A stretch of DNA of 64,000 nucleotides, taken from assembly GCA_035656255.1 (NCBI GenBank), contig DASRSV010000022.1:16630-80629 (forward strand), in the 5' to 3' direction. Shown here one piece after another: positions 4,656-25,705 of this stretch; position 1 is the stretch's first letter, and each line of letters starts with the position of its first letter. The notes under the pieces are model-generated. The model saw only the letters and a program-made list of their open reading frames with translations. It was not told the origin of the DNA and ran no database searches. Position numbers and translations under genes: made by a program. This DNA comes from Thermoplasmata archaeon. Lineage in GTDB: Archaea; Thermoplasmatota; Thermoplasmata; Lutacidiplasmatales; UBA184.

Positions 4656-5223
4656 CGCGCGCGTCCGGGTCTGGGCTCGCGCACTCGAGGCGTTACGCTC
4701 GGCGCGCTCGCAGATGCAGGAGCGTGACGAGCGAATCCGGGAGCTCGAGCGGAGACTCGACCGCCTGGAGAGGGAAGCGGGCCGTTCCGTGGACCTGAAA
4801 GTTACGACGACGGCTTTGGAGGGAGGGCTGGGCAACCGGCCGGCCACCGACGCGTACCGGAACCGGCAGATCGCCGGGTTCATGGCGAGCGTGAACGACC
4901 TCGGTCTCGTCTCGCGGAAGTTCGGGACGGAGGCGGCGCGGGTCGCGGTCCAGACCGGGGTCCGGGCGAACCTGGCGATGCTCTATGCGACCGCGCCGGC
5001 CTCGGTGGAGGAGGGGCGGCGCCGCGACCTCCTGCGCGTCCTGTTCTCTAGTCCTGCCGCGGCAGCGATCCTCGCGGGCTCGGAGGAGCGGCACGAGCGG
5101 TTCCGCCACGACGTGATCACCGCGGCGCTGAACGCCGGGGTCGAGACCTCCACGTGGGAGCTCGTCCGGAGGTCGGTGGAGCGCGAGGAATGGGCGACGA
5201 GCTCCACAGACGCCAACCGATAG
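4648..5223 (+). CDS. Coiled-coil hypothetical protein (~191 aa)
   Basis: GAGGAG RBS before GTG 4648, overlapping the upstream gene end (start moved from 4483). Heptad-like stretch ERDERIRELERRLDRLERE. Confidence 0.65.
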   Translation: MTDARVRVWARALEALRSARSQMQERDERIRELERRLDRLEREAGRSVDLKVTTTALEGGLGNRPATDAYRNRQIAGFMASVNDLGLVSRKFGTEAARVAVQTGVRANLAMLYATAPASVEEGRRRDLLRVLFSSPAAAAILAGSEERHERFRHDVITAALNAGVETSTWELVRRSVEREEWATSSTDANR

Positions 5224-6044
5224 GACCGCTCCGCTGGCTCTACGGACCCCCGCCCGACCCGCCGGGGCCGACGCCAGACGAGGTCCGTCGCCACTGGGTC
5301 GCCTACCTCCGTGACCGTGTGGAGAACCACTGGGACAACATGGTCCTCCTTGACGGGATGAGGGGGTCCGGAAAGTCGACTCTCGCCTATCAGCTCGCCA
5401 CGGCCGTCGACCGGACGTTTCGCCCCGGGGACATGGAGTGGCGTATCTGTGGGTCCCCGGAGACCCTGAGCGCCGCCGTCGAACGGGCGACGGTGGGACA
5501 GGTGGTGGTGTTCGACGAGGCGATGATGGGGTTCCGAGGCGTGGACTTCATGAAGCGCCCGTTCCAGGAGCTGGTCTCGATCTTCACGGTGAATCGGTTC
5601 CGAGGCGGCACGTTCCTGGTCCTGTCGCCGTCGATCCACCGGCTGGGAGCCTTCTTCCGAGACGACATCGCGGACGTCTGGATCGCCATTCCGGTCCGGT
5701 CCCGGGGACGGGCGTTCGTCCACCTGAGGACGCCGGGGATCCGTTACGAGTACGGCGAGAAGAAGCCGATCTGGACGAAGGAGTCCCTGTTCAATCCACT
5801 GGAGTGGGGCGAGTCCCGGGGACCCGGTTGGGAGGAGTTCGACCGCATTTCCCGCGGCCGGAAGCTGGAGGTGATCCGGGAGTCGTCGGAACGACTGCGG
5901 AGGACTCGGAGTCCCCGCACTTCTCGCGTACCCGTGGTCTGCCCCCACTGCGGGCACAGCTGGCGAGCGTTACCGGCCCGCCTGTCCCGACAGTGTCCCT
6001 CATGTCTTCGACGATTCAGAATCAGAAATGGAGGACCGGATTAA
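5190..6044 (+). CDS. P-loop NTPase with C-terminal Zn ribbon, putative viral packaging/extrusion ATPase
   Basis: Walker A GMRGSGKST, Walker B VVVFDEA, downstream NRFRGG..LSP element, C-terminal CPHC...CPSC. Start moved to ATG 5190. Confidence 0.8.
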   Translation: MGDELHRRQPIGPLRWLYGPPPDPPGPTPDEVRRHWVAYLRDRVENHWDNMVLLDGMRGSGKSTLAYQLATAVDRTFRPGDMEWRICGSPETLSAAVERATVGQVVVFDEAMMGFRGVDFMKRPFQELVSIFTVNRFRGGTFLVLSPSIHRLGAFFRDDIADVWIAIPVRSRGRAFVHLRTPGIRYEYGEKKPIWTKESLFNPLEWGESRGPGWEEFDRISRGRKLEVIRESSERLRRTRSPRTSRVPVVCPHCGHSWRALPARLSRQCPSCLRRFRIRNGGPD

Positions 6045-6153: not shown

Positions 6154-6615
6154 TTACGGCGGTAGCGGATGCCGTTCGAGCAGCAGTCGACCGTGGAGGT
6201 TCGTCGCGGTGAGCACCTCCCCTTCCGTGACGCTCAGGACTAGGATTTCCCCGAGGGCGAGCTTGTGCGGCAGCACGGCAGCGGGAGTCCGCGCGCCAGA
6301 ATCGGGGGACGCGGGCACAGGTGCCGCCGCCACAGAGCGAGAGGTTCCAACTCTGACCGCCCGGGTCGGTCCTGAAATCCGGTACATCTTTTCATGACCG
6401 GACCTCATCGCAATGATGGCTCCGCTGCGGACGAGTAACCGGAGTGCGTGATACACCGAGTTCGGGTGGAACTTTCGTTGGCTCGCCTTCGCGATCCGCT
6501 TCGCGATGTCGGAGGTCGCGAGGCGGGCGCCCGAGCCCACGGACCGCAGCTCGGCCAGGATCCACTTCTGCGCACCACGGGGATCGGACCGGGACTTACT
6601 TCGCTTGGCCGCCAT
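6154..6615 (-). CDS. Winged-helix DNA-binding protein
   Basis: ILAEL...LATSDIAKRI...NSVYHALRLLVRSGAI...KMYRI fits a wHTH pattern. Start moved to MAAKR at 6615. Confidence 0.7.
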   Translation of the reverse strand: MAAKRSKSRSDPRGAQKWILAELRSVGSGARLATSDIAKRIAKASQRKFHPNSVYHALRLLVRSGAIIAMRSGHEKMYRISGPTRAVRVGTSRSVAAAPVPASPDSGARTPAAVLPHKLALGEILVLSVTEGEVLTATNLHGRLLLERHPLPP

Positions 6616-6879
6616 CGAGTCACGGAGTCGATTCCTGACGTAAATGTATCCGGTAGTCTCCTGCGATGCCGGAGCGTCCACAATGGTCTCGGCTCATGCT
6701 GAAGATCGGAAGGCGAGTACTCCGCATGCTCCAAGGAGTACGAGCCGACACCGGCCGGTAGAGAGCGGATGGGTCGCTGCTGTAGGCCCAGAACCAGGGA
6801 GGCTCGGGCCAGCGATGTTCAGCGAACGGAACCCGAATTGATCCGTCCAGTCGCGTGACCGAGATCCCGGCTTAGGGCC

Positions 6880-8699: not shown

Positions 8700-9206
8700 G
8701 TGATGCCAACCGGCCCTTTGGTCTTCCTCGCTTATCGAATCGACAATGGCGGCGAATGCGATCTCCTCTCGCAGAAGCTGAAAGTGGACCTTCGAGCTCG
8801 TGTTGTCACGGTACACCGCGGGGCGGATCGCTCCCCCGCCGGCGAGTTGATCGAGGACCATGTGTTCCCAGAAATCGAGCGGAGCGACGGCGTGATGATC
8901 CTATGGTCAGAGCCGGCTCGGACGTCTGCATGGGTGAATGCCGAGTACCGCTATGCCCAGAGGATTGGGCGACGAATTTGTCTTGTCCAGTTCCCCGGGA
9001 TTGATCCACCCGACGATTGGCCCCCCGGGCTCAAGCGGGTAAAGCTACGAGGAGTGACTTTCTCCTCGCCCACCCTGGACGGAGGGATTCGATTCTCAAC
9101 GACCGGACCCGCTTACGAAGAAATGCTTGCCGAGTTGGTGGAGTTCGCCCACCGGGCCATGTCGTTCAAGCGAGGGGTAGAACTTCCCCCTTGGCTCAGC
9201 ACCTGA
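8700..9206 (+). CDS. Stand-alone TIR-domain protein
   Basis: VFLAY (cf. VFISY) at the N-terminus, VMILWS, and SAWVNAEYRYA with the conserved TIR catalytic Glu. Confidence 0.8.
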   Translation: MMPTGPLVFLAYRIDNGGECDLLSQKLKVDLRARVVTVHRGADRSPAGELIEDHVFPEIERSDGVMILWSEPARTSAWVNAEYRYAQRIGRRICLVQFPGIDPPDDWPPGLKRVKLRGVTFSSPTLDGGIRFSTTGPAYEEMLAELVEFAHRAMSFKRGVELPPWLST

Positions 9207-9330: not shown

Positions 9331-10572
9331 ATGCCGAAGAAAGCGGATGCGAAAGGGAGCGCGCTCATAGACTCTCTTCGCCGTTGGGTCACGGCCAAAC
9401 ACGGCACCGCGCCCCTAGAGAGTGCGACTGCGATTCCGGGCGCAAACGGCTCCGATCACCCCTTCATCATCACGTCAGTTCCAATCGCTGACCTGAGGTT
9501 CGAGGACCATCAGTACAACCCGCGCCACCCGAGTCTCGGGCGCGTGAACGAGCTGCGCGCGTCGGTGCACCAACTCGGGCTCCTGTCCCCACTTACCTGC
9601 GCGTACGTCGCAGGCGGAACTGAGGAGGTCGTCCTCATCGATGGACGCCATCGATTCGACGCGCTTCGCGCTCTGTCCGCAGAAGACAAGGAATGGGCGA
9701 AACGAGCGCGTGTGGATCTGAAGGTCTACTACGGCCTGACTAAGAGCGACCTCTTCCAACTCGCCACCTACCTGAACCGAACCCGGAAATCACTCGCCAA
9801 GGGAGAGTACTACAAGGTCGTCGTTCACATTTTCGAGGAGAAGAAGAAGGAGTTGGAGGCGCTGGACGGCAGGCCCCGAACTGAGAAGGAAGTTTTCCAT
9901 GCGGTCAGTTCCCATACCATCTCCGATAGAGATTTCGATCTCTCCATCGGCCGGATCGTCGGAATGGTTGCGTTCGATGAGGAGGAGGATGAAGCATGGT
10001 ATCCCATGGTGGGAACTCGCCAACAGGAACGTATCCGTGGACCACCGTCCCTGAGCGGCTACTGCCCCCTGACCGCCGGGAATCTTGCAGCCTTCCTCGC
10101 CTATCTGTGCAACCCCAAGCCGTACCCCGACAAAGGAGCGCTACGAGACACGGAAATCGGGAATGTCCTACATCTCGGCGCGATATTCCGAAAGCTGATC
10201 ATCGACAAGCCGGTCAAGTCCTATGAGACGGCTACAGGAACCAGCATCGCATGCAAACACTGGTGCCTCGTTGCATTCGGTAGCCTGCTCCACGAGAGCA
10301 GACTGTTCGCTCCGCAGGTACGAGCGGGGAGGTCCCCCTTAGCTGAGGCCGAGCCAGCCTGGGACCGCTTCACGAAGGTGATTGCCGAATACCGCGAAAT
10401 AATGGACGCGCAGGCCGCAATCGTCCGCAGGTACAAGAGCACCGACGAGCCCGGTTTTCTGAAAGACGCCTGGAGCTATCAAACCCAACGCGACCAGGTC
10501 AAGATACCTATGCAGAAGGCGTTCAAAGAACGCGGCATCTCCGACCTTGCCCGGGCGGTTTCCGCCAAATGA
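9331..10572 (+). CDS. ParB/Srx-fold N-terminal domain protein (DGQHR/DndB-like)
   Basis: YNPR, ELRASV..LGLLSPL, VLIDGRHRFDAL and KVYYGL...LATYLNRTRKSL. A TTAAG element lies ~28 nt upstream. Confidence 0.75.
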   Translation: MPKKADAKGSALIDSLRRWVTAKHGTAPLESATAIPGANGSDHPFIITSVPIADLRFEDHQYNPRHPSLGRVNELRASVHQLGLLSPLTCAYVAGGTEEVVLIDGRHRFDALRALSAEDKEWAKRARVDLKVYYGLTKSDLFQLATYLNRTRKSLAKGEYYKVVVHIFEEKKKELEALDGRPRTEKEVFHAVSSHTISDRDFDLSIGRIVGMVAFDEEEDEAWYPMVGTRQQERIRGPPSLSGYCPLTAGNLAAFLAYLCNPKPYPDKGALRDTEIGNVLHLGAIFRKLIIDKPVKSYETATGTSIACKHWCLVAFGSLLHESRLFAPQVRAGRSPLAEAEPAWDRFTKVIAEYREIMDAQAAIVRRYKSTDEPGFLKDAWSYQTQRDQVKIPMQKAFKERGISDLARAVSAK

Positions 10573-11897
10573 CCTCAGATCAAGGCGCACTGCTCGATTG
10601 CCTCGGTGTGCCGCCTAGTCATTCCGATCAAGTTCTTGGAGCATGGGCGCCTTCCAACCCCACCCTTCGAATGCGTTCGATGCTCGAACGTCTCGGGCCC
10701 GAGGCATCGGACCCTAGCTGGCCAGTCGGCCAGTCGCAGGATCGACTTCTGAAGTGGGGACTCTACTCGCCCTTACAGCTCGTCGCCCAGCAATGCGGAG
10801 CCGCCGCGCGTCCCACAATGGAATCCGACTTTCCTTTCTTATTCGGGTTCATGGGGTTGGTTACGCAGGGCCTGATTCATTTTCGGAAGCCCAAACCCCC
10901 CTCGGGAGCTTGGCCCCCCAAGGATCGCAAGGAGGCTCGTCGTTATTCCGCGCTCTATCAATCGGTCTTCCGACTTCGGGAACAACGAGAAGAGCGGGAG
11001 CCGCTGTCTCTCGAGGTCAGGTTGCCGCTCATCACAGATCCCTCACCGCTTCTGCCGCTAAAGAGGTTCGCGCAAGTCGTTGGGCGGGGGGTCGGCGTGG
11101 CAAACGGAGATCGGTTATCGGCACCAACTTCCCCTTCGGCACAGGCCGTCAAATTATTCCGTAACCACGAGGGGACGCCGAGTAATCGGCTCTACCGGCT
11201 TGACTCGGAATACGAGTACATTAGCCCAAAGGACTTGTCGTTAACCTTGCGACGGGACGGGCTGCTCACTCTGGCTTCCAGGTACAACCCGCTGCTCGAT
11301 TTCTACGATGGGGGGTGGCATGTCGTCGATATGGAGGGTGGGCGTCGGGCCATAGATCGACTCTTATCCGCGCGCTTCGGTGGCACTCAGATCGATTCAG
11401 ACCTGCCGAAGTTTCTGCTCAGGCTTGCTTACCACATGGCGACCCATTGGCACGGCGGGATACTCGCGGTGGTTGATGAAAAAGCCGCGGAGAAGCGCCT
11501 TCACCCGGCTCTGCCGGAGTCCAGGGCCATGACACTGCTCATCCGGAAGGCAGCGGGCGCGAAGACGAAGGAATTCCGGATCACCGACGTCGACAAGCCA
11601 GTGGACCCGGACCTGCCCCACAAGCCAAGCTGGGGGCTTGGACGCTTGTTCCTCACCCTCGCGATACAGGATGGCGCCGTGCTCTTTGCGCCGGACGGTC
11701 GGTTCTTGTCTGCCTCTCGATTCGTCGCCGACAACGACCAAAACATAGGCAGTGGTGGAGCGGGTGCCAGGGCCGCCCTCGCCTTGTCCAAGTGTGGGTT
11801 GGCGATCAAGATTAGCGCAGACGGCGCGATCAAGGTATTCGCTCGCGCCGAGAACGGCAGGCTTCTCGTGCCCGCAGCTGGTCTCCGGATTCGATAG
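10569..11897 (+). CDS. Protein with C-terminal DisA_N/diadenylate-cyclase-like domain and uncharacterised N-terminal region
   Basis: HGGILAVV, IQDGAVLF (DGA motif) and GAGARAALALS..LAIKISADGAIKVF matching the DAC fold. The RHR motif is degenerate. ATGA overlap with the ParB-like gene. Confidence 0.7.
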   Translation: MTSDQGALLDCLGVPPSHSDQVLGAWAPSNPTLRMRSMLERLGPEASDPSWPVGQSQDRLLKWGLYSPLQLVAQQCGAAARPTMESDFPFLFGFMGLVTQGLIHFRKPKPPSGAWPPKDRKEARRYSALYQSVFRLREQREEREPLSLEVRLPLITDPSPLLPLKRFAQVVGRGVGVANGDRLSAPTSPSAQAVKLFRNHEGTPSNRLYRLDSEYEYISPKDLSLTLRRDGLLTLASRYNPLLDFYDGGWHVVDMEGGRRAIDRLLSARFGGTQIDSDLPKFLLRLAYHMATHWHGGILAVVDEKAAEKRLHPALPESRAMTLLIRKAAGAKTKEFRITDVDKPVDPDLPHKPSWGLGRLFLTLAIQDGAVLFAPDGRFLSASRFVADNDQNIGSGGAGARAALALSKCGLAIKISADGAIKVFARAENGRLLVPAAGLRIR

Positions 11898-11900
11898 GCT

Positions 11901-13640
11901 CTAGGACGCGGCGAAGCTGCGGCAAATGTCATGTGGCTCGTCGACGATCCGCGCGTCGAACCCCTCGACAACCGGCCCGAATGTCGCGCCGTAAAGACGG
12001 GGCTGAAGGTACGCAACGATTCTCCGATAGTGCTTTCCGATGACGCCGAGAACGGTCGCGGTCCGGATTCGGAGGAACTCTGTGTGGCGTGGGTGAATGG
12101 CGTTGGTCAACGGGAAGTCATATCCCATGATCGCGGGGTTGCCCTCGTGGTCCCAATGGACGGGGCCGTAAAGCCCGCTCAACGTGATCCGATCGAAGTC
12201 GTCGCCTTCCACCCACCCTTCGGATTCCAGATGAGAGAGGATCCTGCGGTGGACTTTGCTTCGGGCGTACGGTCGGGAGCGCGAGCAGGGTAGCAAGAGC
12301 AATGCGGCCTCGGCGCATGGCTCAAACCCCTTGAGCGGAAACGCGTACTCCTTCGGTACAACAGATCCCTTGGTGGCCGCGGGGACTTGAGCAGAGGCGT
12401 GCGGCGCCGCTAGCCCGAGTGCAACTCTGGTCCGCCACCACGAGAGGTTGTGGAGAGCCAGAGCGGCCCAAACATCGGATCGATTGACTCGCCTCTCACC
12501 AATCATGAGGGGACGATAGGGAGGTCGCGTCAGGAGCTCGACGACGTTCTCCCTCCCAACTCCCATCAGGAGCGTGCATCCCGGGCAAGAACATCCAGAG
12601 TCTTCGCTCGGGTCGAAGTCGCGATAGTTGCCGATCCGATGATCAAAGACACGCTTTCGGAACGCCGCCTGAACATAGGTCGAGTTGTCGAACGATAGGG
12701 GCCGACAATCTGGGTGTCGCCTGACTAGTTCCCCAACCACGGCCTCTCCAACACCGAAGAGATGCAGAGGGGTGTTGTCGGCGGTTGTCCGCGCCATCCA
12801 GGAGAGTACTGCCTCGCAGTTCTGGAGGATGCGTTGCGGCTCCCTTGACAGAGGAACCTGACTCCCGAGTGCAATCCCGAGAGCCGGCGAGGAAAACGCG
12901 CCGACGGGTAGGGCGTCTTCAAGCGATCGGGCGCACCACGTGACTTCCTCCGCGGACCTGCCGTGGACCGCCAAGTACGCAGTCGGGGTACTGTTCGATC
13001 CGATCACCGCACTGGCCAGCCATGCCGAGTTACGCACGCTGGCAATGATGTGGCGCCGCGCCTGTCTCGGGCTGGCCCCGCGCGGGATAGGTGAGTCGAG
13101 GCTTGCGATTCGCGACGGACCAAACTTGAGTTGCATTTCGAGGACACTCTCTGGGGAGAGATCCATGCCCCACGGGGAAAGGTCGATTTTGTCCCCGTGA
13201 AGAATTTGAAACCCACCACTATCCAGGAAGACATCTCCGGACGGCCCCAGAAGTTCCTCGAGTTCCCGTTGGATTCGCACGCCACCGTACCACGGCGCGA
13301 ACCACGCCTCCCACGCTCGGTCGCTGAGTTCGTAGGCCGTGAAGTGCAGTGCTTGGACCATGAGGCGAGGCGGCCCATCGACTCCCCTCAGCCCGGCTTT
13401 GATGGCTTTCCAGACGCCGCCGTTCCTCGTGAGTCCGGGTGGCCCTGTGAGCAGGTGGACAACGGGGAAGAAGGATACCGGGCCCCCGCCTTCCTGCATG
13501 GGGGGGGATGAGAGGGCCACCGTTTGAGCGCTTCTGTCTCGCGGCGGGGCGAGCGAGGGTTTCCCCGGGCCGCTAGATTGGGCGACTGTCCCGTGGGAGT
13601 GCGCTCTGTCAAACTCAATCGGCCGGGACTGGGACCTCAT
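11901..13640 (-). CDS. tRNA-guanine transglycosylase (TGT/DpdA)-like enzyme fused to a C-terminal DUF5591/ArcS-like domain
   Basis: VFLDSGGFQ, HLFGVG, SFDNSTY, Zn motif CSCPGC...HNL, C-terminal LLLLPCSRSRPYARSKVH. Start is probably ATG 13640 or 13499 rather than 13898. Confidence 0.8.
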   Translation of the reverse strand: MRSQSRPIEFDRAHSHGTVAQSSGPGKPSLAPPRDRSAQTVALSSPPMQEGGGPVSFFPVVHLLTGPPGLTRNGGVWKAIKAGLRGVDGPPRLMVQALHFTAYELSDRAWEAWFAPWYGGVRIQRELEELLGPSGDVFLDSGGFQILHGDKIDLSPWGMDLSPESVLEMQLKFGPSRIASLDSPIPRGASPRQARRHIIASVRNSAWLASAVIGSNSTPTAYLAVHGRSAEEVTWCARSLEDALPVGAFSSPALGIALGSQVPLSREPQRILQNCEAVLSWMARTTADNTPLHLFGVGEAVVGELVRRHPDCRPLSFDNSTYVQAAFRKRVFDHRIGNYRDFDPSEDSGCSCPGCTLLMGVGRENVVELLTRPPYRPLMIGERRVNRSDVWAALALHNLSWWRTRVALGLAAPHASAQVPAATKGSVVPKEYAFPLKGFEPCAEAALLLLPCSRSRPYARSKVHRRILSHLESEGWVEGDDFDRITLSGLYGPVHWDHEGNPAIMGYDFPLTNAIHPRHTEFLRIRTATVLGVIGKHYRRIVAYLQPRLYGATFGPVVEGFDARIVDEPHDICRSFAAS

Positions 13641-13711
13641 AGTCAGCCTTTCGAGCACGACCCTCCGGCCTCGGGGCGGGCCTGGCGCACGATTTGACAG
13701 GGGGAGTTTGC

Positions 13712-13942
13712 TCACGGAGTTGTGGCGGACCGCCAACCCCACGAGTAGGCCAGCCGCTGGAGAAACCACAGGGTCGAGAACCCGGGAACGAGCCGAAGCG
13801 GGATTCGATTGGACTGGAATCCTCGAAGCTCCGCCCAGTAATCCCGTAAGAGGGCCCCAGGCGTCAGGGGTCCCGGAATCATGGAGGCGGAGTGCCACTC
13901 TGCAGCCTGCCCGTCCGTCCGGTCGACCTGAAGATATGTCAT
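13712..13942 (-). CDS. 76-aa hypothetical protein coupled to the glycosyltransferase
   Basis: ATG overlaps the GT stop (ATGA). MTYLQVDRTDG...FSTLWFLQRLAYSWGWRSATTP. Confidence 0.45.
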   Translation of the reverse strand: MTYLQVDRTDGQAAEWHSASMIPGPLTPGALLRDYWAELRGFQSNRIPLRLVPGFSTLWFLQRLAYSWGWRSATTP

Positions 13943-14655
13943 GACGGTTCTACCGGGCCGAAGATTCGGTCCGTCGCCTGTCGACAGCCCCGTCCGTAGT
14001 TGCGGAAGGTCCGCAAGAAGTCCAACACGCCGGGCCGGAATTCGTGCCGCACGAGCGCGTCGGGGACGTACTTGAACGTCCATCCCGCGCGGCGAAGCCG
14101 TATGCTCAGGGCAACGTCCTCCCCGCCGGGAGTCGGGATCGAGCCGTCGAACCCCCCCACGGCGAGCGCCTCACGACGAGAGTAGGCGCAGTTGGCGGTC
14201 ACGAGGTAGAGCATCGATGGCGGAGGCTCAAGGATTCGGTAGTACGCGTAGTACCGAGAGATCCAATCGATATCGGTGGGGAGGACCCGCCCCCCGGCGC
14301 CGACGATTCGGCGGGAGGTGTCGATGGGGCTGATCAAGGACCCCAACCAGTCGGGATCCACGATGCAATCGTCGTCCGCGAAGGCTACAATGTCCGCCGA
14401 GGTGGACTCCATACCTAAGTTGCGCCCGTGGCCAGGACCTGTGCCGTCGGTCTGCGAGACGATCACCGGATCGAATGAGTGGGGGGCGGCACCCCATTCT
14501 CGGAGAAACTCCGGAGTGGAGTCCCGCGATCGGCCATCCACGACGACTACCTCGTCCGGGCGGAGGCCTCGGAGCCGGTCGACAGACCCGAGGAGTCGTT
14601 CGAGCCGGATTTGTCGATCCCTAGTGGGAATCACTAGCGCGACGCTCCGCGTCAT
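13939..14655 (-). CDS. Family 2 (GT-A) glycosyltransferase
   Basis: VALVIPTRDR, VVVVDGRSRD, RNLG, FADDDC (DxD), GGFD, EDVAL. ATG 14655 overlaps the epimerase stop. Confidence 0.9.
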   Translation of the reverse strand: MTRSVALVIPTRDRQIRLERLLGSVDRLRGLRPDEVVVVDGRSRDSTPEFLREWGAAPHSFDPVIVSQTDGTGPGHGRNLGMESTSADIVAFADDDCIVDPDWLGSLISPIDTSRRIVGAGGRVLPTDIDWISRYYAYYRILEPPPSMLYLVTANCAYSRREALAVGGFDGSIPTPGGEDVALSIRLRRAGWTFKYVPDALVRHEFRPGVLDFLRTFRNYGRGCRQATDRIFGPVEPS

Positions 14656-15578
14656 CCCGATGGGTGCCCCCGCATCCACAGGATCGTTCGCTCGAGGCCC
14701 TCCTCCAAATCGACGCGGGGCTGGTACCCGAACGCCTCCTTCGCCTTCGAGATGTCCAGCCAAGTCCGGAGCCCCTCCTCCCCCCGTCGATACTTCCACG
14801 AGGGGTCGAACTCGACCCTTCCCGACCCGACCTTCCGCACCACCGAATTGCCAAGGTCGAGAATCGAAAGTTCCCTGCCGCTCGCGATGTTGAACGTCCC
14901 CGAGGCACCCGCGTCAAGCGCCATTCGAACGCCGTCTACGAAGTTCGTGACGAAGTTCAGGTCACGCGTGGGGTGGCCCCCAAGGACAGGTTCGGCGGGG
15001 AATAGGAGGGGCTCGTTGCGAAGTGCGCGGCGGACGAATTTGGCGACGACCTGGGCCTTAGGGTCGCTGCGAGGACCGTACCCCATGCCGCTCCGGACGA
15101 TCAGGGCCTTGCTGCCAAAGGCGCTCCGGACCAGCACCTCTGCCGCGGCCTTCGACGCCGCGTACGGGGACTGGGGGTTCGGTAAGACGGTTTCCGGGGT
15201 GGGATAGGCAACCGCCGGACCGTACACGGTTTCGGATGATGCATAGAGGAATGTCCTGAGGTCACCTCCGAGTTGGAGCGCGGCTTGGATCAGGTTGATC
15301 GTGGCGACGACGTTGTCCCGGTAGGTCCCGATCGGATCTTCGAACGAAGGCTCGACGCGCGCTTGCGCCGCGAGATGAACTATCACCTCGGGGGAGATCC
15401 GGCGGACCAGGCTGCTGAGCCCGTCGGGGTTGCAGAGGTCTGCCAGATGGTAGACGACGCCGTCGACGCGTTCGAGGGGCGGACGCCGATCCACCCCGTG
15501 GAGCTTATCGCGCCCTGAGCGGGCCTCGAGGAACGAAGTGCCGATGAAGCCCGAACAACCCGTGAGCAGAATCTTCAA
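14652..15578 (-). CDS. NAD-dependent NDP-sugar epimerase/dehydratase (extended SDR)
   Basis: ILLTGCSGFIG, HLAAQARV, ASSETVYG, PYAASK, YGPR, RDLNFV. Confidence 0.92.
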   Translation of the reverse strand: MKILLTGCSGFIGTSFLEARSGRDKLHGVDRRPPLERVDGVVYHLADLCNPDGLSSLVRRISPEVIVHLAAQARVEPSFEDPIGTYRDNVVATINLIQAALQLGGDLRTFLYASSETVYGPAVAYPTPETVLPNPQSPYAASKAAAEVLVRSAFGSKALIVRSGMGYGPRSDPKAQVVAKFVRRALRNEPLLFPAEPVLGGHPTRDLNFVTNFVDGVRMALDAGASGTFNIASGRELSILDLGNSVVRKVGSGRVEFDPSWKYRRGEEGLRTWLDISKAKEAFGYQPRVDLEEGLERTILWMRGHPSG

Positions 15579-15622: not shown

Positions 15623-16270
15623 CTACCCCGCTGAGGCCTCGGCGCTCTCATCGGCCATCTGTAGGGTGCCCCCCGAAGGGTGGACCGATTGGTCCCGCCT
15701 TAGCACCGAGCGAACGGCTCCCAGTTTGAGGTTCATTTTCTGGGAGATCATTCGAAGGCTCTCGCCTCCGGCTCGGCGGGCTTGGACCTCCCTCGCAATA
15801 CGCTCCGGGATTCTCCGAGGTGCCCCAAACTTCTTGCCCAGCGCGCGAGCCCGCGCCACGCCCGCTTGGGTTCGTTCGAGGATGAGCTCGCGCTCGAATT
15901 CTGCCAGGGCTGCGAGCATGTTCCGCTGCAGACGACCGCTTGGGGTGGAGGTGTCGATTCCCTGGTCGATGACAATCACGCGGGCTCCTGCCGCCTCAGC
16001 GTCGTCCCAGAACCGCAGGATCATACCCAACGAGCGGCCTAGCCGGTCCATCTTGGAAACTACGATCGTATCGAACTCGCCCGAGGCGAGCCGCTCCCGA
16101 AGTCGATCAAGCTCCGGTCGGTTGTCCCGGATGCCTGAGATTCCGTCGTCCCGAAAGACCGCGACATCCGGCCAGCCTCTCGCCTGGCAGTAGGCGGTGA
16201 GCTGACCGACTTGGGCCTCCGTCGACTGTTCCTTGGTCGAGACGCGAGCGTAGATCGCGACCCGAGTCAT
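15623..16270 (-). CDS. Serine recombinase (resolvase/invertase family) with C-terminal HTH
   Basis: AIYARVSTKEQ, SG..DNRPEL, SKMDRLGRS, LAALAEFERELILERTQAG. ATG 16270 overlaps the MTase stop. Confidence 0.93.
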   Translation of the reverse strand: MTRVAIYARVSTKEQSTEAQVGQLTAYCQARGWPDVAVFRDDGISGIRDNRPELDRLRERLASGEFDTIVVSKMDRLGRSLGMILRFWDDAEAAGARVIVIDQGIDTSTPSGRLQRNMLAALAEFERELILERTQAGVARARALGKKFGAPRRIPERIAREVQARRAGGESLRMISQKMNLKLGAVRSVLRRDQSVHPSGGTLQMADESAEASAG

Positions 16271-17643
16271 GCTGGGGCCTCTTCCCGCGTTGCAACGTCG
16301 GCGACCCCGGCGGCCGAGCGGTGGCGAGAGAGAATCACGTAGTCGGGGTTGAGTTCGATACCGACGGATCTGCGGCCTAGTCGGCGCGCGACCGCGAGGA
16401 CGGTACCGCTTCCCGCGAAGGGGTCGAGAACGAGGCAAGGGACGGTGCCGGTGGTCTCACAGGAGCAGCGTTTGCGGAACCCCAAGTCAACCCGCCGGTA
16501 GCTCCCATCGTGCCACCCGGGGGCGTTGGCGACGGGGGCGCGGCCCGACACCAGCGGAGCCTCGAGTTTCTGCGCGTGGCCGATGGCGCCCCCAACGGCC
16601 CGGACTTCCCTCGACCAGGGAGTCCCGCACTTGGCGCACGCCCCGCGCTCGGAGGTTCCCGCCAGGATGCAGAGCTCGGGGAGCTTCTCCGGGAACGTGG
16701 CGAAGTGGGCCGCCCGGTAGGGCTGGGTCGGGATCCACCAGACCGACCGGAGGTTGCGACCTGAGGGGGTCGTGTTTCGCAACATTGGGAATCGCCGAAA
16801 GTCCCCCTCGGGATGCTTCGAGTGGGAGCCGCGATTATCGGTTGGGTTTGGTAGATGATGTCGGAGCCTTTGGAGCGTGCTCTCCTGAAGGGGCTCGCGG
16901 ACCGCGTACGTGTCGTAGAAGTAGCGTCTCGACTTCGTGAGAAGGAAGACCGAGTCGTGGGCCCGGGTGGGCCGATCCTTGACCGCCTCCGGCATCGGAT
17001 TCGGCTTCGCCCAAACACAATCGGACCTAAGCCACCAGCCCCGGCGTTGCAGCTCGAAAGCGACTCGCCAAGGAATCCCCACGAGATCCTTCGGCTTCAG
17101 TCCGGGCGCCCGCTTGTCGATCCGACCGGCCTGTTCGGCCCCCGTGTGGTTCCGGTTGGATAGCGTCGAGGCCTTCCATCGCTTCTCGCCGGTGAGTCCA
17201 GATGGGTGGGTGGCATAGGTATCGCCGAGGTTCAGCCAGAGCGTCCCGTCGGGCCGCAAGACCCGGCGGACTTCGTCGAAGACGCCCGCGAGATGCTCCA
17301 CGAATCCTTCGGGGGTGGGCTCCAAGCCGAGCTGGCCGAGCCACCCTCCGCACTTCCGGCAGGTTGAACCGCCCTGCGAAGCGTCGTAAGGGTCGCTCTC
17401 ACTTGGCCGAGCGGGCCCACCGTTTGTGCCATCCGCATCGCGCTGGCGCTGCGGCTGCGCCAGCTCCCATTCGTGGTTACAAGCCGCCAGTCCGCCCCAT
17501 CTGATCGGTCGGAGCCCGTAGTCTCGAAGTCCCCAGTACGGGGGGGACGTGACAATGCAGTGGATCGAGTCGTGCGGGAGGCAGCGCAGGATGTCCAGAA
17601 CGTCCCCCTCGAGGATGACCGGAGTCGGGTCATCCGGGATCAC
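16267..17643 (-). CDS. Site-specific DNA methyltransferase (N4-C/N6-A, beta-type motif order), copy 2
   Basis: VTSPPYWGLRDY N-terminal and DPFAGSGT C-terminal. GGAGG before GTG 17643, which overlaps the upstream stop. Confidence 0.92.
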   Translation of the reverse strand: MIPDDPTPVILEGDVLDILRCLPHDSIHCIVTSPPYWGLRDYGLRPIRWGGLAACNHEWELAQPQRQRDADGTNGGPARPSESDPYDASQGGSTCRKCGGWLGQLGLEPTPEGFVEHLAGVFDEVRRVLRPDGTLWLNLGDTYATHPSGLTGEKRWKASTLSNRNHTGAEQAGRIDKRAPGLKPKDLVGIPWRVAFELQRRGWWLRSDCVWAKPNPMPEAVKDRPTRAHDSVFLLTKSRRYFYDTYAVREPLQESTLQRLRHHLPNPTDNRGSHSKHPEGDFRRFPMLRNTTPSGRNLRSVWWIPTQPYRAAHFATFPEKLPELCILAGTSERGACAKCGTPWSREVRAVGGAIGHAQKLEAPLVSGRAPVANAPGWHDGSYRRVDLGFRKRCSCETTGTVPCLVLDPFAGSGTVLAVARRLGRRSVGIELNPDYVILSRHRSAAGVADVATREEAPA

Positions 17644-19016
17644 GCGGTTGCCTCCGCCGTATGACGGGGGATGGCAGAGGCGACGGGGAAACTCCGGAGG
17701 CGAGCCATCTCGACGTATTCCGGGTTCAGGTCGATACCGATCGACCTCCGCCCCAGCCGCCGGGCCGCCGCCAATACCGTCCCGCTCCCGGCGAAGGGAT
17801 CGAGGACGAGACACGGGACAACCCGGTCGCCCGGGCAGGCGCACCGCTTTCGGAAACCGAGGTCGATCCTTCGGTAGCTCCCGTCAAGATGACCGGGAGC
17901 CGTAATCCCCTGCACCCGACCGCGCGTGAGTGACTTGTCTGGGTACCAATCGTGCCCGATCGAACCGCCTTCGACTCGCACCTCGCGAGCCCAGGGTCTA
18001 CCGCACGAAGCGCAGGATCCGCGCTCGGAGGTTCCGGCTCGAATGCAGATGTCGGGAAGCGCCTCAGGGAACGTCGCGAAGTGAGCACCGGAGTATCCCC
18101 GGGTCGCAATCCACCAGACGGACCGGAGGTTCCGACCGCGCCCGGGCGGGAGCTCCGTGGCGACAGCCCGGGCGAGGCTCGAATTGGATCGGACGCCCGA
18201 GCCCGGGGTCGCTAGTTTACGGGCGGCCCGACCGCCCTTGGGGTGGGCTGCGCCGGAGACCGGCTCTCGGACGGCCTCGCCGTCGTAGAAGTACCGCCGC
18301 GATTTCGTGAGGATGAAGACGTACTCGTGCGAGCGGGTCGGACGATCCACGACCGATTCCGGCATCGGGTTTGGCTTCGCCCATACGCAATCGGAACGGA
18401 GCCACCAGCCCCTCCGTTGGAGCTCGAACGCGACCCTCCAAGGGATTCCTGCTAGGTCCTTCGGCTTGAGCTGGCCGTGGCGGGAAGCGCTTCTCCGCGC
18501 CCCACCCCTGCTGCGGATCTGGGAAAGGTCCCACCCAGGGGAGAACGCCTCGGCCGACGATCGGCATACCGGGCTGTCCGTGTGGAAGGTGTCGCCAAGA
18601 TTGAGCCAGAGCGTCCCGTCACGACGGAGAACTCGCCGGACCTCATCGAAGACCGCGCCGAGGTGGTCGACGTAGAGCTCGGGGGTTGGTTCCAGGCCCA
18701 GCTGTCCAAGCCAGCCGCCACATCGGACACACCCCTCCGTTGATCGGAGCTCGATGTTGGCCCCTGCATGGGCCGCCTGAACCGATCCGGGGTTCCGGAC
18801 GTCGTCGGGGGAGCGTTTTCGTCGCGGCGGGAGTTTTGCCCAACTGTGCCGGCACGACGAATCGCCGCCCCAGAGGACGGGGGGAAGACCGTAATCCCGG
18901 AGGCCCCAGTACGGAGGCGAGGTGACCACGCATTGGATTGAATCGTCGGGGAGTCGAGCGAGAACCTTCCCTACGTCGCCCTCGAGGATGGTCGGGGTAA
19001 GGTCCGTGGGGATCAC
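17640..19016 (-). CDS. Site-specific DNA methyltransferase (N4-C/N6-A, beta-type motif order), copy 1
   Basis: VTSPPYWGLRDY and DPFAGSGT. Paralog of the adjacent MTase. Confidence 0.92.
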   Translation of the reverse strand: MIPTDLTPTILEGDVGKVLARLPDDSIQCVVTSPPYWGLRDYGLPPVLWGGDSSCRHSWAKLPPRRKRSPDDVRNPGSVQAAHAGANIELRSTEGCVRCGGWLGQLGLEPTPELYVDHLGAVFDEVRRVLRRDGTLWLNLGDTFHTDSPVCRSSAEAFSPGWDLSQIRSRGGARRSASRHGQLKPKDLAGIPWRVAFELQRRGWWLRSDCVWAKPNPMPESVVDRPTRSHEYVFILTKSRRYFYDGEAVREPVSGAAHPKGGRAARKLATPGSGVRSNSSLARAVATELPPGRGRNLRSVWWIATRGYSGAHFATFPEALPDICIRAGTSERGSCASCGRPWAREVRVEGGSIGHDWYPDKSLTRGRVQGITAPGHLDGSYRRIDLGFRKRCACPGDRVVPCLVLDPFAGSGTVLAAARRLGRRSIGIDLNPEYVEMARLRSFPVASAIPRHTAEATA

Positions 19017-20183: not shown

Positions 20184-20303
20184 CCGACCACCCCCGGCGA
20201 CGTTTCAAGGACCGCCCGCATGGCCCTGGTGGCGGCGGGAGTCTGGGCCTGTTCAGCCCGATTCCGAGCCGGTTTTCGGCTGGGTTCTATAAGAAAGTGG
20301 TTA

Positions 20304-20330
20304 TGGGCCCGGACGGATTCGAACCGACGA
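20304..20330 (-). repeat. Degenerate duplicate of a tRNA 3' end (att-like site)
   Basis: tgggcccggacggattcgaaccgacga matches tgggccgggacggattcgaaccgtcga at 22538 (25/27), covering the T-arm and the acceptor 3' strand only. Confidence 0.8.
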
Positions 20331-20403: not shown

Positions 20404-22260
20404 CTATCGCCTCTGACCGATCGGCTTGGGGGGGCGACGGCGAACCCAAACGACGACCAGAGCGATGCACACCGCCACGGCGACTTCGAGTGCGAGCCAG
20501 GCCAGAAGCGGCAGGCTTGCGAACACAGAAGTGTTCCCCGGTCGGACTGCTGGAGAGGCGGGAGGCGAAGGGGCCTGGGCGTGAATGACGGGTCCGGTCA
20601 CCATCGATCCCGCGACGGTGATGCTCGTCGACGAAGCGTTCCCCGAGTATCCGGCAGGGAGGGAGAAGCCGATGGAGTACGTCCCGTTCGACAGAAAGAA
20701 GACCAGCGAGTTGCTCGTTGAGCTCTTCGTCAGATTGAAGCCGGTCGAGAGGTTCGAGATGGTTACGCTCCAGTTGGAGCCCGGCGGAAGACCGAACTCG
20801 ACGAAGACGATCGGATAGGTGAGCGGCCGGAATCCCACCGCTACGATCAAATCGCTCCCGTTGATGAACGCGAGGCCGGAACTCGGAACAACATAACCCG
20901 CTACCGGGAGTACCACGTAACCGTACGTGCCGTTCGGCTCGGTGTAGGTCAGATTGCTCGTGAACGAGGTTTGGGACTCGCTCCCGATGAGGACTCCCCA
21001 ACCAGATCCGGTGGGCAGTCCGGTTTCGTGAAAGACGAGCTGATAGCTCACCCGGTGAAATACGACAGAGACGCTCGTCCCAAATCCCTCGACCGCAACT
21101 GTTCCGATGGACGGATTGGCCGTGCTCAGGTTCGATTGATAGCCAGGCGCCTCAGCGACAAAGCTGTACGTTCCGGGATGAACTGAGTATTGGATTTGCG
21201 TGCCGGTCGTGGCGGTTTTTGATCCGTTCAGCGTGATGGACCAGGGGGTCCCGGGTGGCAAGCCGCTCCGGACGAACGTAACGGGGAACCATTGGGCGCT
21301 CCAATTGATCGACGGTGTCAGGTACGCGTTCTGAACGATCTTCGTCGTGTTGTCCTGAACGAATGAGAGCACGCTCAGGTTGAACCGGTTCCACGTAGAG
21401 TTGAGCGGTTCCGTCGCGTTAAAGCCCAAGGTCTGGCCCATCGTGACCGTCATCGGGTGGTTGTGGACGGTGGCCCGGACGACGTAACCGATGCTGTGCG
21501 GCCCGTACCCGTTCGAGACGCCGGTCTTGTTGATGTACTCGAGGAGGTAGGTGATCACGTTGTACGTCCCGTTGACCCCCGACGTGATCCCCACGGCCGC
21601 ACGGACAGTCGTGCCGGAGAGGACCACCGTCTGCGCGATGGAGACGTTCCCTGGTACCTTCGAGGCGTTCTGGATGGCGTCCCAATAGACGTTCTGCGAG
21701 TACGCCTCGGTACTGCCCTCCTGGCCGATCAGCCCGTGCTGGCCGTCGAAAAAGACGGTCGGATAGCCCTGAAGATGGTAGTAGGCGCCGCGAGCGTCGG
21801 TCGTCCCGTCAGGCGGAACGTATGCCTCGAGGCAATTCGGGGGCGGCGCTGCGCATCCGTGCAACTCGGCGATGGCAACCACTGAGGGGCTTTGTTGCTG
21901 GTCGATGTTGTAGAGCGCCTGCGACTCGTCCGGACAGTAGTGGCACCAGACCCCGGTGAAGGCTTCAACGAGTACCGTCCTTGGATACGGGCCAACTGCC
22001 GCCGGACGATCCGATCGGGCGCCGTGCGTATCCGCAGGAGTGGCCTGTCGAGCGGTTACTTGGGAAGGCTGTAACACAGTACTAGCAGATCGAGGAGGAG
22101 GCGAGTAGCCCGATCGATCCGGCGTGGCCGGATTCGGAGCGTGCGACAGGTTCGCCCAAACGCCTGCCCTCGCGATCGAGGGTGTCGCGGCGCCGAGAAG
22201 GACGACCACCCCGAGGAGCGTGGCAGTCACGCCGATCCCGGCCCTTGGAACACCGGACAT
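20404..22260 (-). CDS. Surface-anchored protein with Omp28-like thioredoxin (CxxC) domain, GLPxG repeats and C-terminal TM
   Basis: Signal-like N-terminus from ATG 22260, VLVEAFTGVWCHYCP, three vxFxExGLPxGxxW repeats, TM helix followed by RRRP. Confidence 0.8.
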   Translation of the reverse strand: MSGVPRAGIGVTATLLGVVVLLGAATPSIARAGVWANLSHAPNPATPDRSGYSPPPRSASTVLQPSQVTARQATPADTHGARSDRPAAVGPYPRTVLVEAFTGVWCHYCPDESQALYNIDQQQSPSVVAIAELHGCAAPPPNCLEAYVPPDGTTDARGAYYHLQGYPTVFFDGQHGLIGQEGSTEAYSQNVYWDAIQNASKVPGNVSIAQTVVLSGTTVRAAVGITSGVNGTYNVITYLLEYINKTGVSNGYGPHSIGYVVRATVHNHPMTVTMGQTLGFNATEPLNSTWNRFNLSVLSFVQDNTTKIVQNAYLTPSINWSAQWFPVTFVRSGLPPGTPWSITLNGSKTATTGTQIQYSVHPGTYSFVAEAPGYQSNLSTANPSIGTVAVEGFGTSVSVVFHRVSYQLVFHETGLPTGSGWGVLIGSESQTSFTSNLTYTEPNGTYGYVVLPVAGYVVPSSGLAFINGSDLIVAVGFRPLTYPIVFVEFGLPPGSNWSVTISNLSTGFNLTKSSTSNSLVFFLSNGTYSIGFSLPAGYSGNASSTSITVAGSMVTGPVIHAQAPSPPASPAVRPGNTSVFASLPLLAWLALEVAVAVCIALVVVWVRRRPPKPIGQRR

Positions 22261-22537
22261 CCGACCGTGAATTCGGTCGACGCTCGGTGCGGCTAAAGAC
22301 CTCTCCAACGAAGCTGCGACGCAGCCGGCGGCACGGGTTCCATGTCCCCGTTCAACGACGCGGCGGACCGAGCCGCGCCCTCCCTCCAACGCCCTCTGAG
22401 GGCGTGAAGCTCAGCTACCGAAGTTCGCCGCTCCTCGATCTGAACTCGGAGCGCAGAATGCGACCTAGCGGTTCGAGGCCGCGGGCGGGTGAGTTACCCG
22501 TGATTTCGCGAGGCAAGAGGGCGAATATCCCTCTCGA

Positions 22538-22610
22538 TGGGCCGGGACGGATTCGAACCGTCGAGCTCCGCGTTGTAAGCGCGGCGTCCTCACCGCTAGA
22601 CCACCGGCCC
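22538..22610 (-). tRNA. tRNA-Val(TAC)
   Basis: GGGCCGG/CCGGCCC-A acceptor stem, anticodon arm CCGCG-CTTACAA-CGCGG, T-loop GGTTCGAATCC. Confidence 0.95.
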
Positions 22611-22732
22611 ATCGGCGGGACCGAGTCCGGTACAAAGTTACTGCTGGCCACCGGACTGCGTCAGACCGTGGTCCCGCCACGATGCGGCTCCCGGTCCCTC
22701 GAAGATCCCGGTCTCTCCCGAAGGAGGGACCC

Positions 22733-25311: not shown

Positions 25312-25357
25312 GGGCCGAGGAGCAGGGGAACCGACCGTAAGCGGTTCGGCCGGCGGG

Positions 25358-25705
25358 TTACGTCTTCTCCGCGGCTTTTCGCCCCCGTCCTCGCGACGGG
25401 GCACCGGCGGGGAAGAACGCCTCCCAGGCGGTCACGAGCTGCTCGCGCCGCTCGGCGCCGGCTTCGGATCGGCCCCGCTTGCCGAACATCGGGTCGTGGG
25501 TATCCCGGACCGAGCGGAGGAACTCCCCCGGGTTCTCGCTCGCTCGCTCGAAACCGTACAGGATGAGCTGGCGCAGGAAGCTCGAACGGCCCCGCCAACC
25601 GATGCGCCGTCGGACGAGGGGGTTGAGGTGGCGCTTCGCCATGCGCCACACGTCGTTGGTGGTCCGGTAGTCGCGCGCGGAGAGTCCGATCATGACCTGC
25701 GGCAT
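25358..25705 (-). CDS. Hypothetical basic protein (115 aa)
   Basis: ATG 25705 in the ubiA-arcS gap. Protein-like composition, unlike the upstream part of the track ORF. Confidence 0.5.
   Translation of the reverse strand: MPQVMIGLSARDYRTTNDVWRMAKRHLNPLVRRRIGWRGRSSFLRQLILYGFERASENPGEFLRSVRDTHDPMFGKRGRSEAGAERREQLVTAWEAFFPAGAPSRGRGRKAAEKT

Follow-up and report, generated by a model that had tools for sequence, protein, structure and literature searches.

What might an archaeal enzyme of the TGT family do when it is joined to an ArcS-type core and lacks the PUA domain that its tRNA-acting relatives use for RNA binding? The question is raised by a minus-strand gene at 11901..13499 of a 64,000-nucleotide stretch from a Thermoplasmata archaeon (contig DASRSV010000022.1, positions 16,630 to 80,629; hereafter the window), whose product couples a TGT half to a DUF5591 domain of ArcS type. 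With a probability of about 0.6, this fusion is a Dpd-like module that swaps guanine in DNA for preQ0 and then turns the nitrile into an amidine, either 2'-deoxyarchaeosine (dG+) or a preQ0-lysine-type adduct. DNA as the substrate and the amidine as the product are suggested by genomic context and conserved residues, and it is context that points away from tRNA. The first-pass proposal that one polypeptide may perform both base exchange and a second maturation step, and that the missing PUA may indicate a substrate other than tRNA, is supported, all computational checks being in agreement with it. The DNA reading is favored because the gene has a conserved ParB-like neighbor, is an extra copy, carries a His at position 179, has lost the lid and the C1, C2 and PUA domains, and has relatives in loci of DNA type. 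DNA marked with 7-deazaguanines is known in viruses and through bacterial Dpd islands, while for archaeal cells such marks have been proposed from comparative genomics only (haloarchaeal preprint, bioRxiv 10.1101/2025.09.15.676423).

The long minus-strand open reading frame (ORF) around the fusion gene spans 11901..13898 and has three candidate starts (GTG 13898, ATG 13640 and ATG 13499). The last was taken because it is the assembly's own gene call, because homologs are mostly 525-540 amino acids (aa) long, because the upstream sequence is of low complexity, and because the AlphaFold model opens directly into the barrel from this start, with strand beta-1 at residue 8. The gene so delimited encodes 532 aa and a stop (protein P0001, start 13499, stop 11901) and has a 100% identity entry in the protein collection. 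The in-frame extension upstream on the same strand (13500..13898, 133 residues rich in P, R, S and G) is absent from the family consensus and from the assembly gene call, and is probably not translated. It contains ATG 13640, from which the first-pass annotation of this DNA had read a protein of 579 aa, probably 47 codons too long. Two Pfam domains, and no others, are found in the fusion, TGT (PF01702, 30.4-31.1 bits, gathering cut-off 26.3) and DUF5591 (PF17884, 31 bits, just above its gathering cut-off). For the window protein alone these scores are marginal, and they are secured by family-wide conservation and by models: PF17884 matches 59/59 family members, and AlphaFold2 predicts a two-domain protein (pLDDT 91, pTM 0.89). 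From the N-terminus, it consists of the TGT half (12414..13484), an interdomain linker (aa 363-382, 12354..12413) that is disordered at residues 367-380 (pLDDT <50), and the DUF5591/ArcS-core domain, which is ArcS2-like (aa 383-532, 11904..12353). Foldseek places ArcTGT (1j2b/1iq8) first for the model (E 4e-11, prob 1.00), followed by bacterial and human TGT. The joining of a TGT to an ArcS-type DUF5591 domain, recognized in the first pass from the letters alone, is thus borne out by Pfam domains, structural model and fold matches. Compared with a 90%-identical relative (locus L001), the ratio dN/dS is 0.09 for the gene and 0.08 in each half, and therefore both domains are under purifying selection.

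Residue invariance was scored on an alignment of 59 fusion homologs, and the family profile built from them aligns to the P. horikoshii ArcTGT 1IQ8 with E 2.9e-6. The general acid/base Asp, D93, lies in the DSGGFQ signature (13206..13223), where D93, S94, G95, G96 and Q98 are invariant, and aligns to Asp95 of 1IQ8. The base-recognition Asp, D135 (LDSP, 13095..13097), and the nucleophile, D271 (SFDNS, 12687..12689, with S273 also invariant), align to Asp130 and Asp249, so that all three catalytic Asp residues have their counterparts and are invariant. The Zn site, C303-x-C305-x2-C308...H350 (CxCx2Cx41H, 12450..12593), has four invariant ligands, its Cys residues aligning to Cys279/281/284 of 1IQ8. 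CSCPGC is found at 12576-12593 and the His of HNL at 12450-12452, and these signatures, like DSGGFQ, stand where the first pass had seen them. The spacing to the Zn His is 41 residues, compared with 22-25 in ArcTGT, DpdA and bacterial TGT (bTGT). Where tRNA TGTs have Gln, the fusion has an invariant His, H179 (VHGR, 12963..12965). Its counterpart in 1IQ8 is the Gln of the IQG motif, which is also present in E. coli-type TGT and in the host ArcTGT; STSV2 and 9g DpdA carry His here, and S. Montevideo DpdA employs His181 at its base-binding site (PMC10164549). G180 and R181, beside H179, and G249 and G251 are invariant as well. The C-terminal half of the family profile aligns to AF0587 (2q07), a DUF5591 protein, with E 3.4e-5. 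Here the ArcS signature PC-x3-(K/R)PY-x2-S-x2-H (PMC5699537; PMC10516641) reads PCSRSRPYARSKVH (12249..12290), with K replaced by R; R409 is nearly invariant, and C405, P410, Y411 and S414 are fully so. The echo of the host ArcS motif reported in the first pass is confirmed, since PCSRSRPYARSKVH is nearly identical to LLVVPCSRTKPYRNSRTH, which lies in the same window inside ORF 23440-25404 on the minus strand. These two motifs are the only PCS[RK]..PY sites found there by six-frame search.

At E<=1, PUA, TGT_C1 and TGT_C2 are found in none of the 59 family members, so that the missing PUA domain, first remarked on for the window protein, is a property of the whole family, and the C2 domain is absent likewise. 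A homolog search of 5.8 billion proteins gave ~60 full-length fusion homologs of 31-90% identity, and those with a named source all come from Thermoplasmata or Thermoplasmatota metagenome-assembled genomes (MAGs). Among 301 genomes sampled across the class, three carry the fusion (~1%), as do two of ~23 in the genus. The fusion gene comes on top of a full pathway for tRNA archaeosine and is accessory rather than core. The source genome (2.3 Mb, 92% complete, ~70% GC) encodes a canonical ArcTGT (207 bits) on a different contig, a canonical ArcS in the window (ORF 23440-25404, minus strand; DUF5591 at 144 bits with TGT_C2 and PUA), QueC, and a RaSEA-like TIGR01210 radical-SAM protein above cut-off; two other carriers, G154 and G243, keep full ArcTGT and ArcS besides the fusion. 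The gene sits in a stretch of 60-65% GC (~6-22 kb of the window) in this ~70% GC genome, together with a serine recombinase, two paralogous N4/N6 DNA methylases and a TIR protein. It is rare, patchy and horizontally acquired, and lies in a low-GC mobile island.

The genes around the fusion were compared at seven loci (the window, L001, L002, L003, L006, L017 and L018). Exactly three families recur, namely the fusion (7/7), a protein of ~410 aa (7/7) and a protein of ~440 aa (6/7). The first partner, ParB-N-like and of 413 aa in the window (9331..10572, plus strand), adjoins the fusion in 7/7 loci. Residues 49-164 match the ParB-like family phrog_1033 (E 3.5e-10), and the protein also matches Pfam ParB_N (E 0.004) and Noc (7ol9, E 0.019). 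In its DGRHR motif (9640-9654), D104, G105, H107 and R108 are invariant in 51 sequences, and nearly all of its ~60 homologs are found on fusion-bearing contigs. An enzymatic activity could be concealed in its long C-terminal region, ~300 aa in which many charged residues are invariant. The second partner, of 442 aa (10569..11897, plus strand), overlaps the ParB-like gene by ATGA and has a C-terminal DAC fold in its AlphaFold2 model (pLDDT 90.9). All top-50 PDB matches of this domain are CdaA, DisA or DacM (Foldseek, best E 1.6e-4, prob 1.00), and Q367, D368, G369 and A370 are invariant in the family; Pfam DisA_N does not match the protein. The fold and the GxLxV and DGA motifs (DGA at 11670-11678) are held in common with CdaA and DisA, whereas RHR is reduced to G-A-R (GAGARAA, 11757-11777) and ~250 N-terminal residues are without recognized relatives. 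This partner is perhaps an accessory nucleotide-binding subunit, possibly a regulator or sensor. Its gene is absent at L003, which has only the fusion and the ParB-like gene. A pair of ParB-like and DAC-fold genes with a 4-nt overlap occurs without an adjoining fusion at L039 (5784-8338), and L039 and L003 share a metagenome and, judging from the locus-tag prefix, a MAG. Given this split arrangement, the ParB-like and DAC-fold genes form a separable pair.

Within the TGT superfamily, the family stands closest to other fusions. When 1.84 billion representatives were scanned in full with the family profile (HMMER), only 349 proteins were matched at E<=1e-3, the strong matches being mostly TGT-DUF5591 fusions of 600-740 aa from bacteria and other archaea; among the weaker ones, five of ten proteins of 310-340 aa match the PADLOC DpdA model. 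The profile of the TGT half scores 130-280 bits on other fusions, 100-118 bits on haloarchaeal stand-alone TGT paralogs and ~60 bits on the DpdA-positive proteins, with 17 bits for E. coli TGT and 12 bits for the host ArcTGT. In maximum-likelihood trees (IQ-TREE), one clade (97/98) unites all fusions and excludes ArcTGT and bTGT, which pair separately at 100/99, and within the fusion clade the Thermoplasmata family forms a long branch with 100/100 support. Equivalog models of the tRNA enzymes score 21.8 bits on the fusion for ArcTGT/TgtA (TIGR00432, cut-off 350) and 23.4 bits for ArcS (NF040592, cut-off 440). Viral models matched by Foldseek (BFVD) are DpdA-like, including phage nt-1 R9TGF0 and phiST M4SLA5, and also comprise the nt-1 DUF5591 protein R9TEI9; the DUF5591 half matches phrog_34505 (E 0.002).

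The more distant fusions, 600-740 aa long and found in Chloroflexota, cyanobacteria, Halobacteria and other archaea, have the same two-domain architecture and TGT halves of one clade. They are 25-29% identical to the window protein, the bacterial ones retain the N-terminal lid, and their partners are helicases and nucleases in place of the ParB-like and DAC-fold proteins. At L026, in a bacterium, the genes directly upstream of the fusion encode a DNA methylase and a MutH-like nuclease, and at L024, in an archaeon, the fusion is adjoined by a 1524-aa protein combining a superfamily 1 (SF1) helicase with PD-(D/E)xK. In Aggregatilineales (Chloroflexota; L034, 7826-11788) and Spirulina (L035, 7813-11829), the fusion is followed by a DEAD/ResIII helicase of ~1320 aa, which in L035 weakly matches the MrfA Zn-binding domain (E 0.003; YprA family). 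By analogy, these pairs recall Dpd/DISARM-type systems. In Halorutilales (L036, 5911-11751) and Halorussus (L037, 5007-10357), an operon comprises the fusion, a protein of ~150 aa, a second TGT of 413 aa and a GHKL (HATPase_c_3) ATPase; in L036, the ~150-aa protein is DUF6884 and a GIY-YIG nuclease gene then follows. This operon looks like a complete modification-restriction system. The L036 DUF6884 protein has weak matches both to YaaA/DUF328, the DpdC family, and to DUF5591, a sequence likeness which hints that the nitrile-tailoring enzymes of ArcS-type and DpdC-type pathways may be related. In Dictyobacter (L005), the fusion lies in a conjugative/defense island, and the L019 locus has an uninformative context.

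Among described systems, the closest parallel is the viral pair of DpdA and ArcS2 (STSV2_15/STSV2_16 of Sulfolobus virus STSV2, and Vibrio phage nt-1; Hutinet 2019, PMC6884629; Cui 2023, PMC10516641), likewise a PUA-less transglycosylase of the TGT family with a bare DUF5591 core. The nt-1 DpdA2 and stand-alone ArcS2 produce dG+ in E. coli DNA (Cui 2023, PMC10516641). The STSV2 genes for DpdA and ArcS2 adjoin and overlap one another, which amounts to the fusion's architecture in split form. ArcS2 as described by Cui 2023 is a lone DUF5591 core without RNA-binding domains that is tied to a PUA-less TGT, and in the window this tie is a fusion. Two genes in the viruses thus correspond to a single polypeptide in a cellular chromosome, which moreover has ParB-like and DAC-fold partners, is without phage similarity at BLAST level, and keeps the Zn site that is not seen in the aligned sequences of STSV2 and 9g DpdA. 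Another stand-alone ArcS2 may occur in a methanogen virus, as ORF75 of Methanobacterium virus PhiF1 (L021, 1100-1612; 170 aa, annotated as putative ArcTGT) matches the DUF5591 region only (E 0.6).

The Dpd system of Salmonella Montevideo (DpdA/DpdB/DpdC; Thiaville 2016; Gedara 2023, PMC10164549) follows the logic proposed here for the fusion, base exchange and then nitrile tailoring. Its DpdA has in common with the fusion the catalytic Asp triad, the base-site His and the missing N-terminal beta-lid, and requires the ParB-like ATPase DpdB (PMC10164549), whose motif is DGQQR where the window's partner has DGRHR. In Dpd, tailoring is by the DUF328 protein DpdC and gives an amide, whereas the fusion has an ArcS-type domain, for an amidine; and Dpd is bacterial and comes with the restriction genes DpdD-K, whereas the cassette is archaeal, lacks them and has an extra DAC-fold partner. 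The archaeal tRNA pathway of ArcTGT, ArcS and RaSEA relies on the same two chemistries, and no solved structure is nearer to the fusion than ArcTGT. Lid, C1, C2 and PUA are all missing from the fusion; the TGT-like half of ArcS is not the transglycosylase, whereas that of the fusion looks active. Dpd-like BRIGADE systems have been described in haloarchaea, but a text search of that preprint did not find a TGT-ArcS fusion (bioRxiv 10.1101/2025.09.15.676423). Full-text literature searches (DUF5591, DpdA with ArcS, RaSEA, BRIGADE) gave no description of a TGT-ArcS-core fusion or of a ParB-like/DAC partner set. To the known modification of DNA with 7-deazaguanines, the cassette would add a fused two-domain form.

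How could such a protein work on DNA? In the proposed route, free preQ0 would be supplied by the host queuosine/archaeosine precursor pathway. The ParB-N-like partner may act as DpdB does for DpdA, in NTP (nucleoside triphosphate)-dependent DNA loading or opening. The TGT half would then remove a DNA guanine through a covalent intermediate between Asp271 and deoxyribose; Asp93 would be the general acid/base, the base would be read by Asp135 and His179, and preQ0 would be inserted by the double-displacement mechanism of TGTs. With preQ0 in place, the tethered ArcS core would join its nitrile to an amine, either lysine or ammonia, and the amidine formed could be 2'-deoxyarchaeosine or a preQ0-lysine-type adduct, with or without trimming of the latter by the host RaSEA. 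As has been seen for ArcS on tRNA, tailoring would block the reverse exchange. ArcS of T. kodakarensis ignores the free preQ0 base and accepts the preQ0 nucleoside 5'-phosphate, and the lysine adduct that it makes is not exchanged back by ArcTGT (PMC11298593); this preference and the blocked back-exchange fit an order in which the base is inserted first, then tailored and locked. The resulting mark might serve in self/non-self discrimination or shield the DNA of the element from restriction.

Several observations weigh against a DNA 7-deazaguanine writer. The link to DpdA is transitive only, through the DpdA-positive proteins scored by the family profile, since the PADLOC DpdA models PDLC02807/02808 do not match P0001 at E<=0.1, and NCBIfam and PADLOC give no DpdA, DpdB or DndB assignment to the fusion or its partners; the ParB-like partner falls below the NCBIfam DGQHR/DndB-type models and the PADLOC DpdB models. 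The deep order of fusions, DpdA-like proteins and tRNA TGTs is a polytomy in the trees, with long-branch warnings for the phage sequences. Profile alignment (hhalign) gives 94% for the TGT half with STSV2 DpdA, 88% with the host ArcTGT and 3% with 9g DpdA, and for the DUF5591 half 95% with the host ArcS and 91% with the ArcS2 STSV2_16; hhalign and Foldseek thus rank ArcTGT about level with viral DpdA and are not discriminating. From D271 to C303 there are 32 residues, compared with 112 in DpdA (Asp256-Cys368), and the large Ins8 of the latter is absent. Relatives of the fusion were found neither in 50,697 phage records (tblastn) nor on IMG/VR viral contigs (pattern scan), and therefore a viral origin cannot be shown. 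The conserved Thermoplasmata cassette holds no nuclease or helicase, PADLOC finds no DpdD-K restriction genes among its neighbors, and a restriction arm is not evident; the cassette may therefore be modification-only or use unlinked effectors. A RaSEA gene is not in the cassette, although the host has one, and sequence does not distinguish the amine donor, or between dG+, a lysine adduct and an amide as the likely product.

This last point leads to the alternative given most credit, itself unlikely, that DNA is modified but the DUF5591 half is no amidine synthase, and either hydrates the nitrile to an amide (dADG), as DpdC does, or serves in binding DNA or a partner only. An amidohydrolase role for viral ArcS was raised by Hutinet et al., STSV2 with its DpdA and ArcS2 carries dCDG and not dG+ (PMC10516641), and the haloarchaeal neighbor that matches DUF6884, YaaA/DUF328 and DUF5591 together suggests related folds. 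Nevertheless, the ArcS signature is conserved nearly letter for letter and does not vary in the family, no member of which is matched by PF03883 or PF21818 at E<=1, and the sole stand-alone ArcS2 tested yielded dG+ (PMC10516641). Next, and slightly less credible, comes an extra RNA enzyme, by which preQ0 would be inserted and matured either at a second position of tRNA or in a different RNA (rRNA, viral or defense RNA), PUA-free since the ArcS core needs only a preQ0 nucleotide. Such an enzyme would suit the nearest solved structure by profile and fold (ArcTGT), the weak TgtA and ArcS matches in NCBIfam and the tRNA-TGT-like spacing from nucleophile Asp to Zn Cys; in Thermoplasma tRNA, G+ is present at position 13 besides 15 (PMC5699537), and the L-shape of tRNA is not needed by ArcS (PMC11298593). 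Against this stand the ~1% of class genomes that carry the gene, always in addition to full-length ArcTGT and ArcS, its place in a low-GC mobile island, its strict linkage to a ParB-like partner of DNA type, the restriction- and helicase-type loci in which related fusions are embedded, and the absence of C1, C2, PUA and lid all at once. Moreover, Kawamura et al. 2016 reportedly placed the multisite activity of T. acidophilum in ArcTGT itself.

Two further proposals give the DAC-fold protein a larger part. Quite unlikely, and ranked after the RNA enzyme, is the more ambitious form of the DNA reading, in which the three genes are a self-contained archaeal system, not described before, that writes an archaeosine-type or amino-acid amidine (e.g. 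dPreQ0-lysine) into chromosomal DNA, the separable ParB-like/DAC module loading on DNA and coupling its modification state to a nucleotide signal or a nucleotide-gated response. Very unlikely, and the least probable of all, is an enzyme of free nucleotides or small molecules, which with the DAC-fold protein would make or alter a 7-deazapurine nucleotide, as a signal or as a toxin/antibiotic-like metabolite. The nucleotide-cyclase fold of the partner with its intact DGA, the acceptance of preQ0 nucleoside 5'-monophosphate by ArcS, and the TIR protein adjoining in the window, like the SIR2 and TIR genes of L006, would accord with such a role. However, the DAC-fold partner is dispensable at L003 and has a degenerate RHR motif, neither TIR nor SIR2 is conserved with the cassette, and DNA is indicated both by the ParB-like partner and by the surroundings of related fusions. 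We know of no TGT-family enzyme that swaps bases on mononucleotides.

If the fusion is indeed a writer of 7-deazaguanine marks in DNA, the cassette would provide archaea with a second case, distinct from the first, and would be the smallest system of its kind. One fused enzyme would both insert and tailor the base, drawing on the host's pool of tRNA precursors; the ParB-type helper would parallel DpdB, and a DAC-fold partner would be unprecedented in such systems. It would also offer a compact construct for asking how the TGT fold was retargeted from tRNA to DNA, and one that bears on ArcS-type DNA chemistry (dG+ or lysine adduct) and on the role of the wider TGT-DUF5591 clade in bacterial and archaeal defense islands. 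Should the three genes also prove to be the self-contained, signal-coupled system, DNA hypermodification would be linked to DAC-type signaling, a connection previously unseen.

Other genes of the window were considered as parts of the system and rejected. The GT2 and NDP-sugar epimerase genes (13939-15578), between the recombinase and the fusion, are not counted in the cassette because L001, otherwise syntenic, lacks them, as do all other loci; ~440 nt separate the GT2 stop from the likely fusion start, and these genes are probably a local insertion. The methylases, the recombinase and the TIR gene are common only to the window and its closest relative, L001, and these genes and SIR2 were set aside as not conserved beyond it.

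Near the end of the low-GC island stands a tRNA-Val, part of which is duplicated. The copy of the 3' end of tRNA-Val(TAC) (28 nt, 93% identical, 20303-20330) lies 2.2 kb from the intact tRNA (22536-22611), and the pair brackets only an Omp28-like ORF of 661 aa (20404-22389). A search for tRNA-Val-derived att repeats bounding the whole island gave this one 28-nt copy and no third, and with a single att-like copy the left boundary is therefore undefined. An integrated virus or plasmid may make up the left part of the island, where a P-loop protein (5154-6044) matches the phage DnaA-like replication-initiator family phrog_5484 (E 1.7e-6) and has a small winged-helix-like protein (6154-6681) near it.

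The N4/N6 DNA methyltransferase paralogs stand in tandem at 15623-19016, as DNA blocks 74-78% identical and spaced ~1370 nt, and adjoin the small serine recombinase. This arrangement is conserved in the 90%-identical L001, and no cognate endonuclease is seen. Upstream of the ParB-like gene, the TIR gene (8700-9206) encodes a stand-alone TIR-domain protein with weak ThsB-like matches, whose homolog in L001 is interrupted by a DDE transposase; at L006, SIR2 and TIR genes lie beside the cassette.

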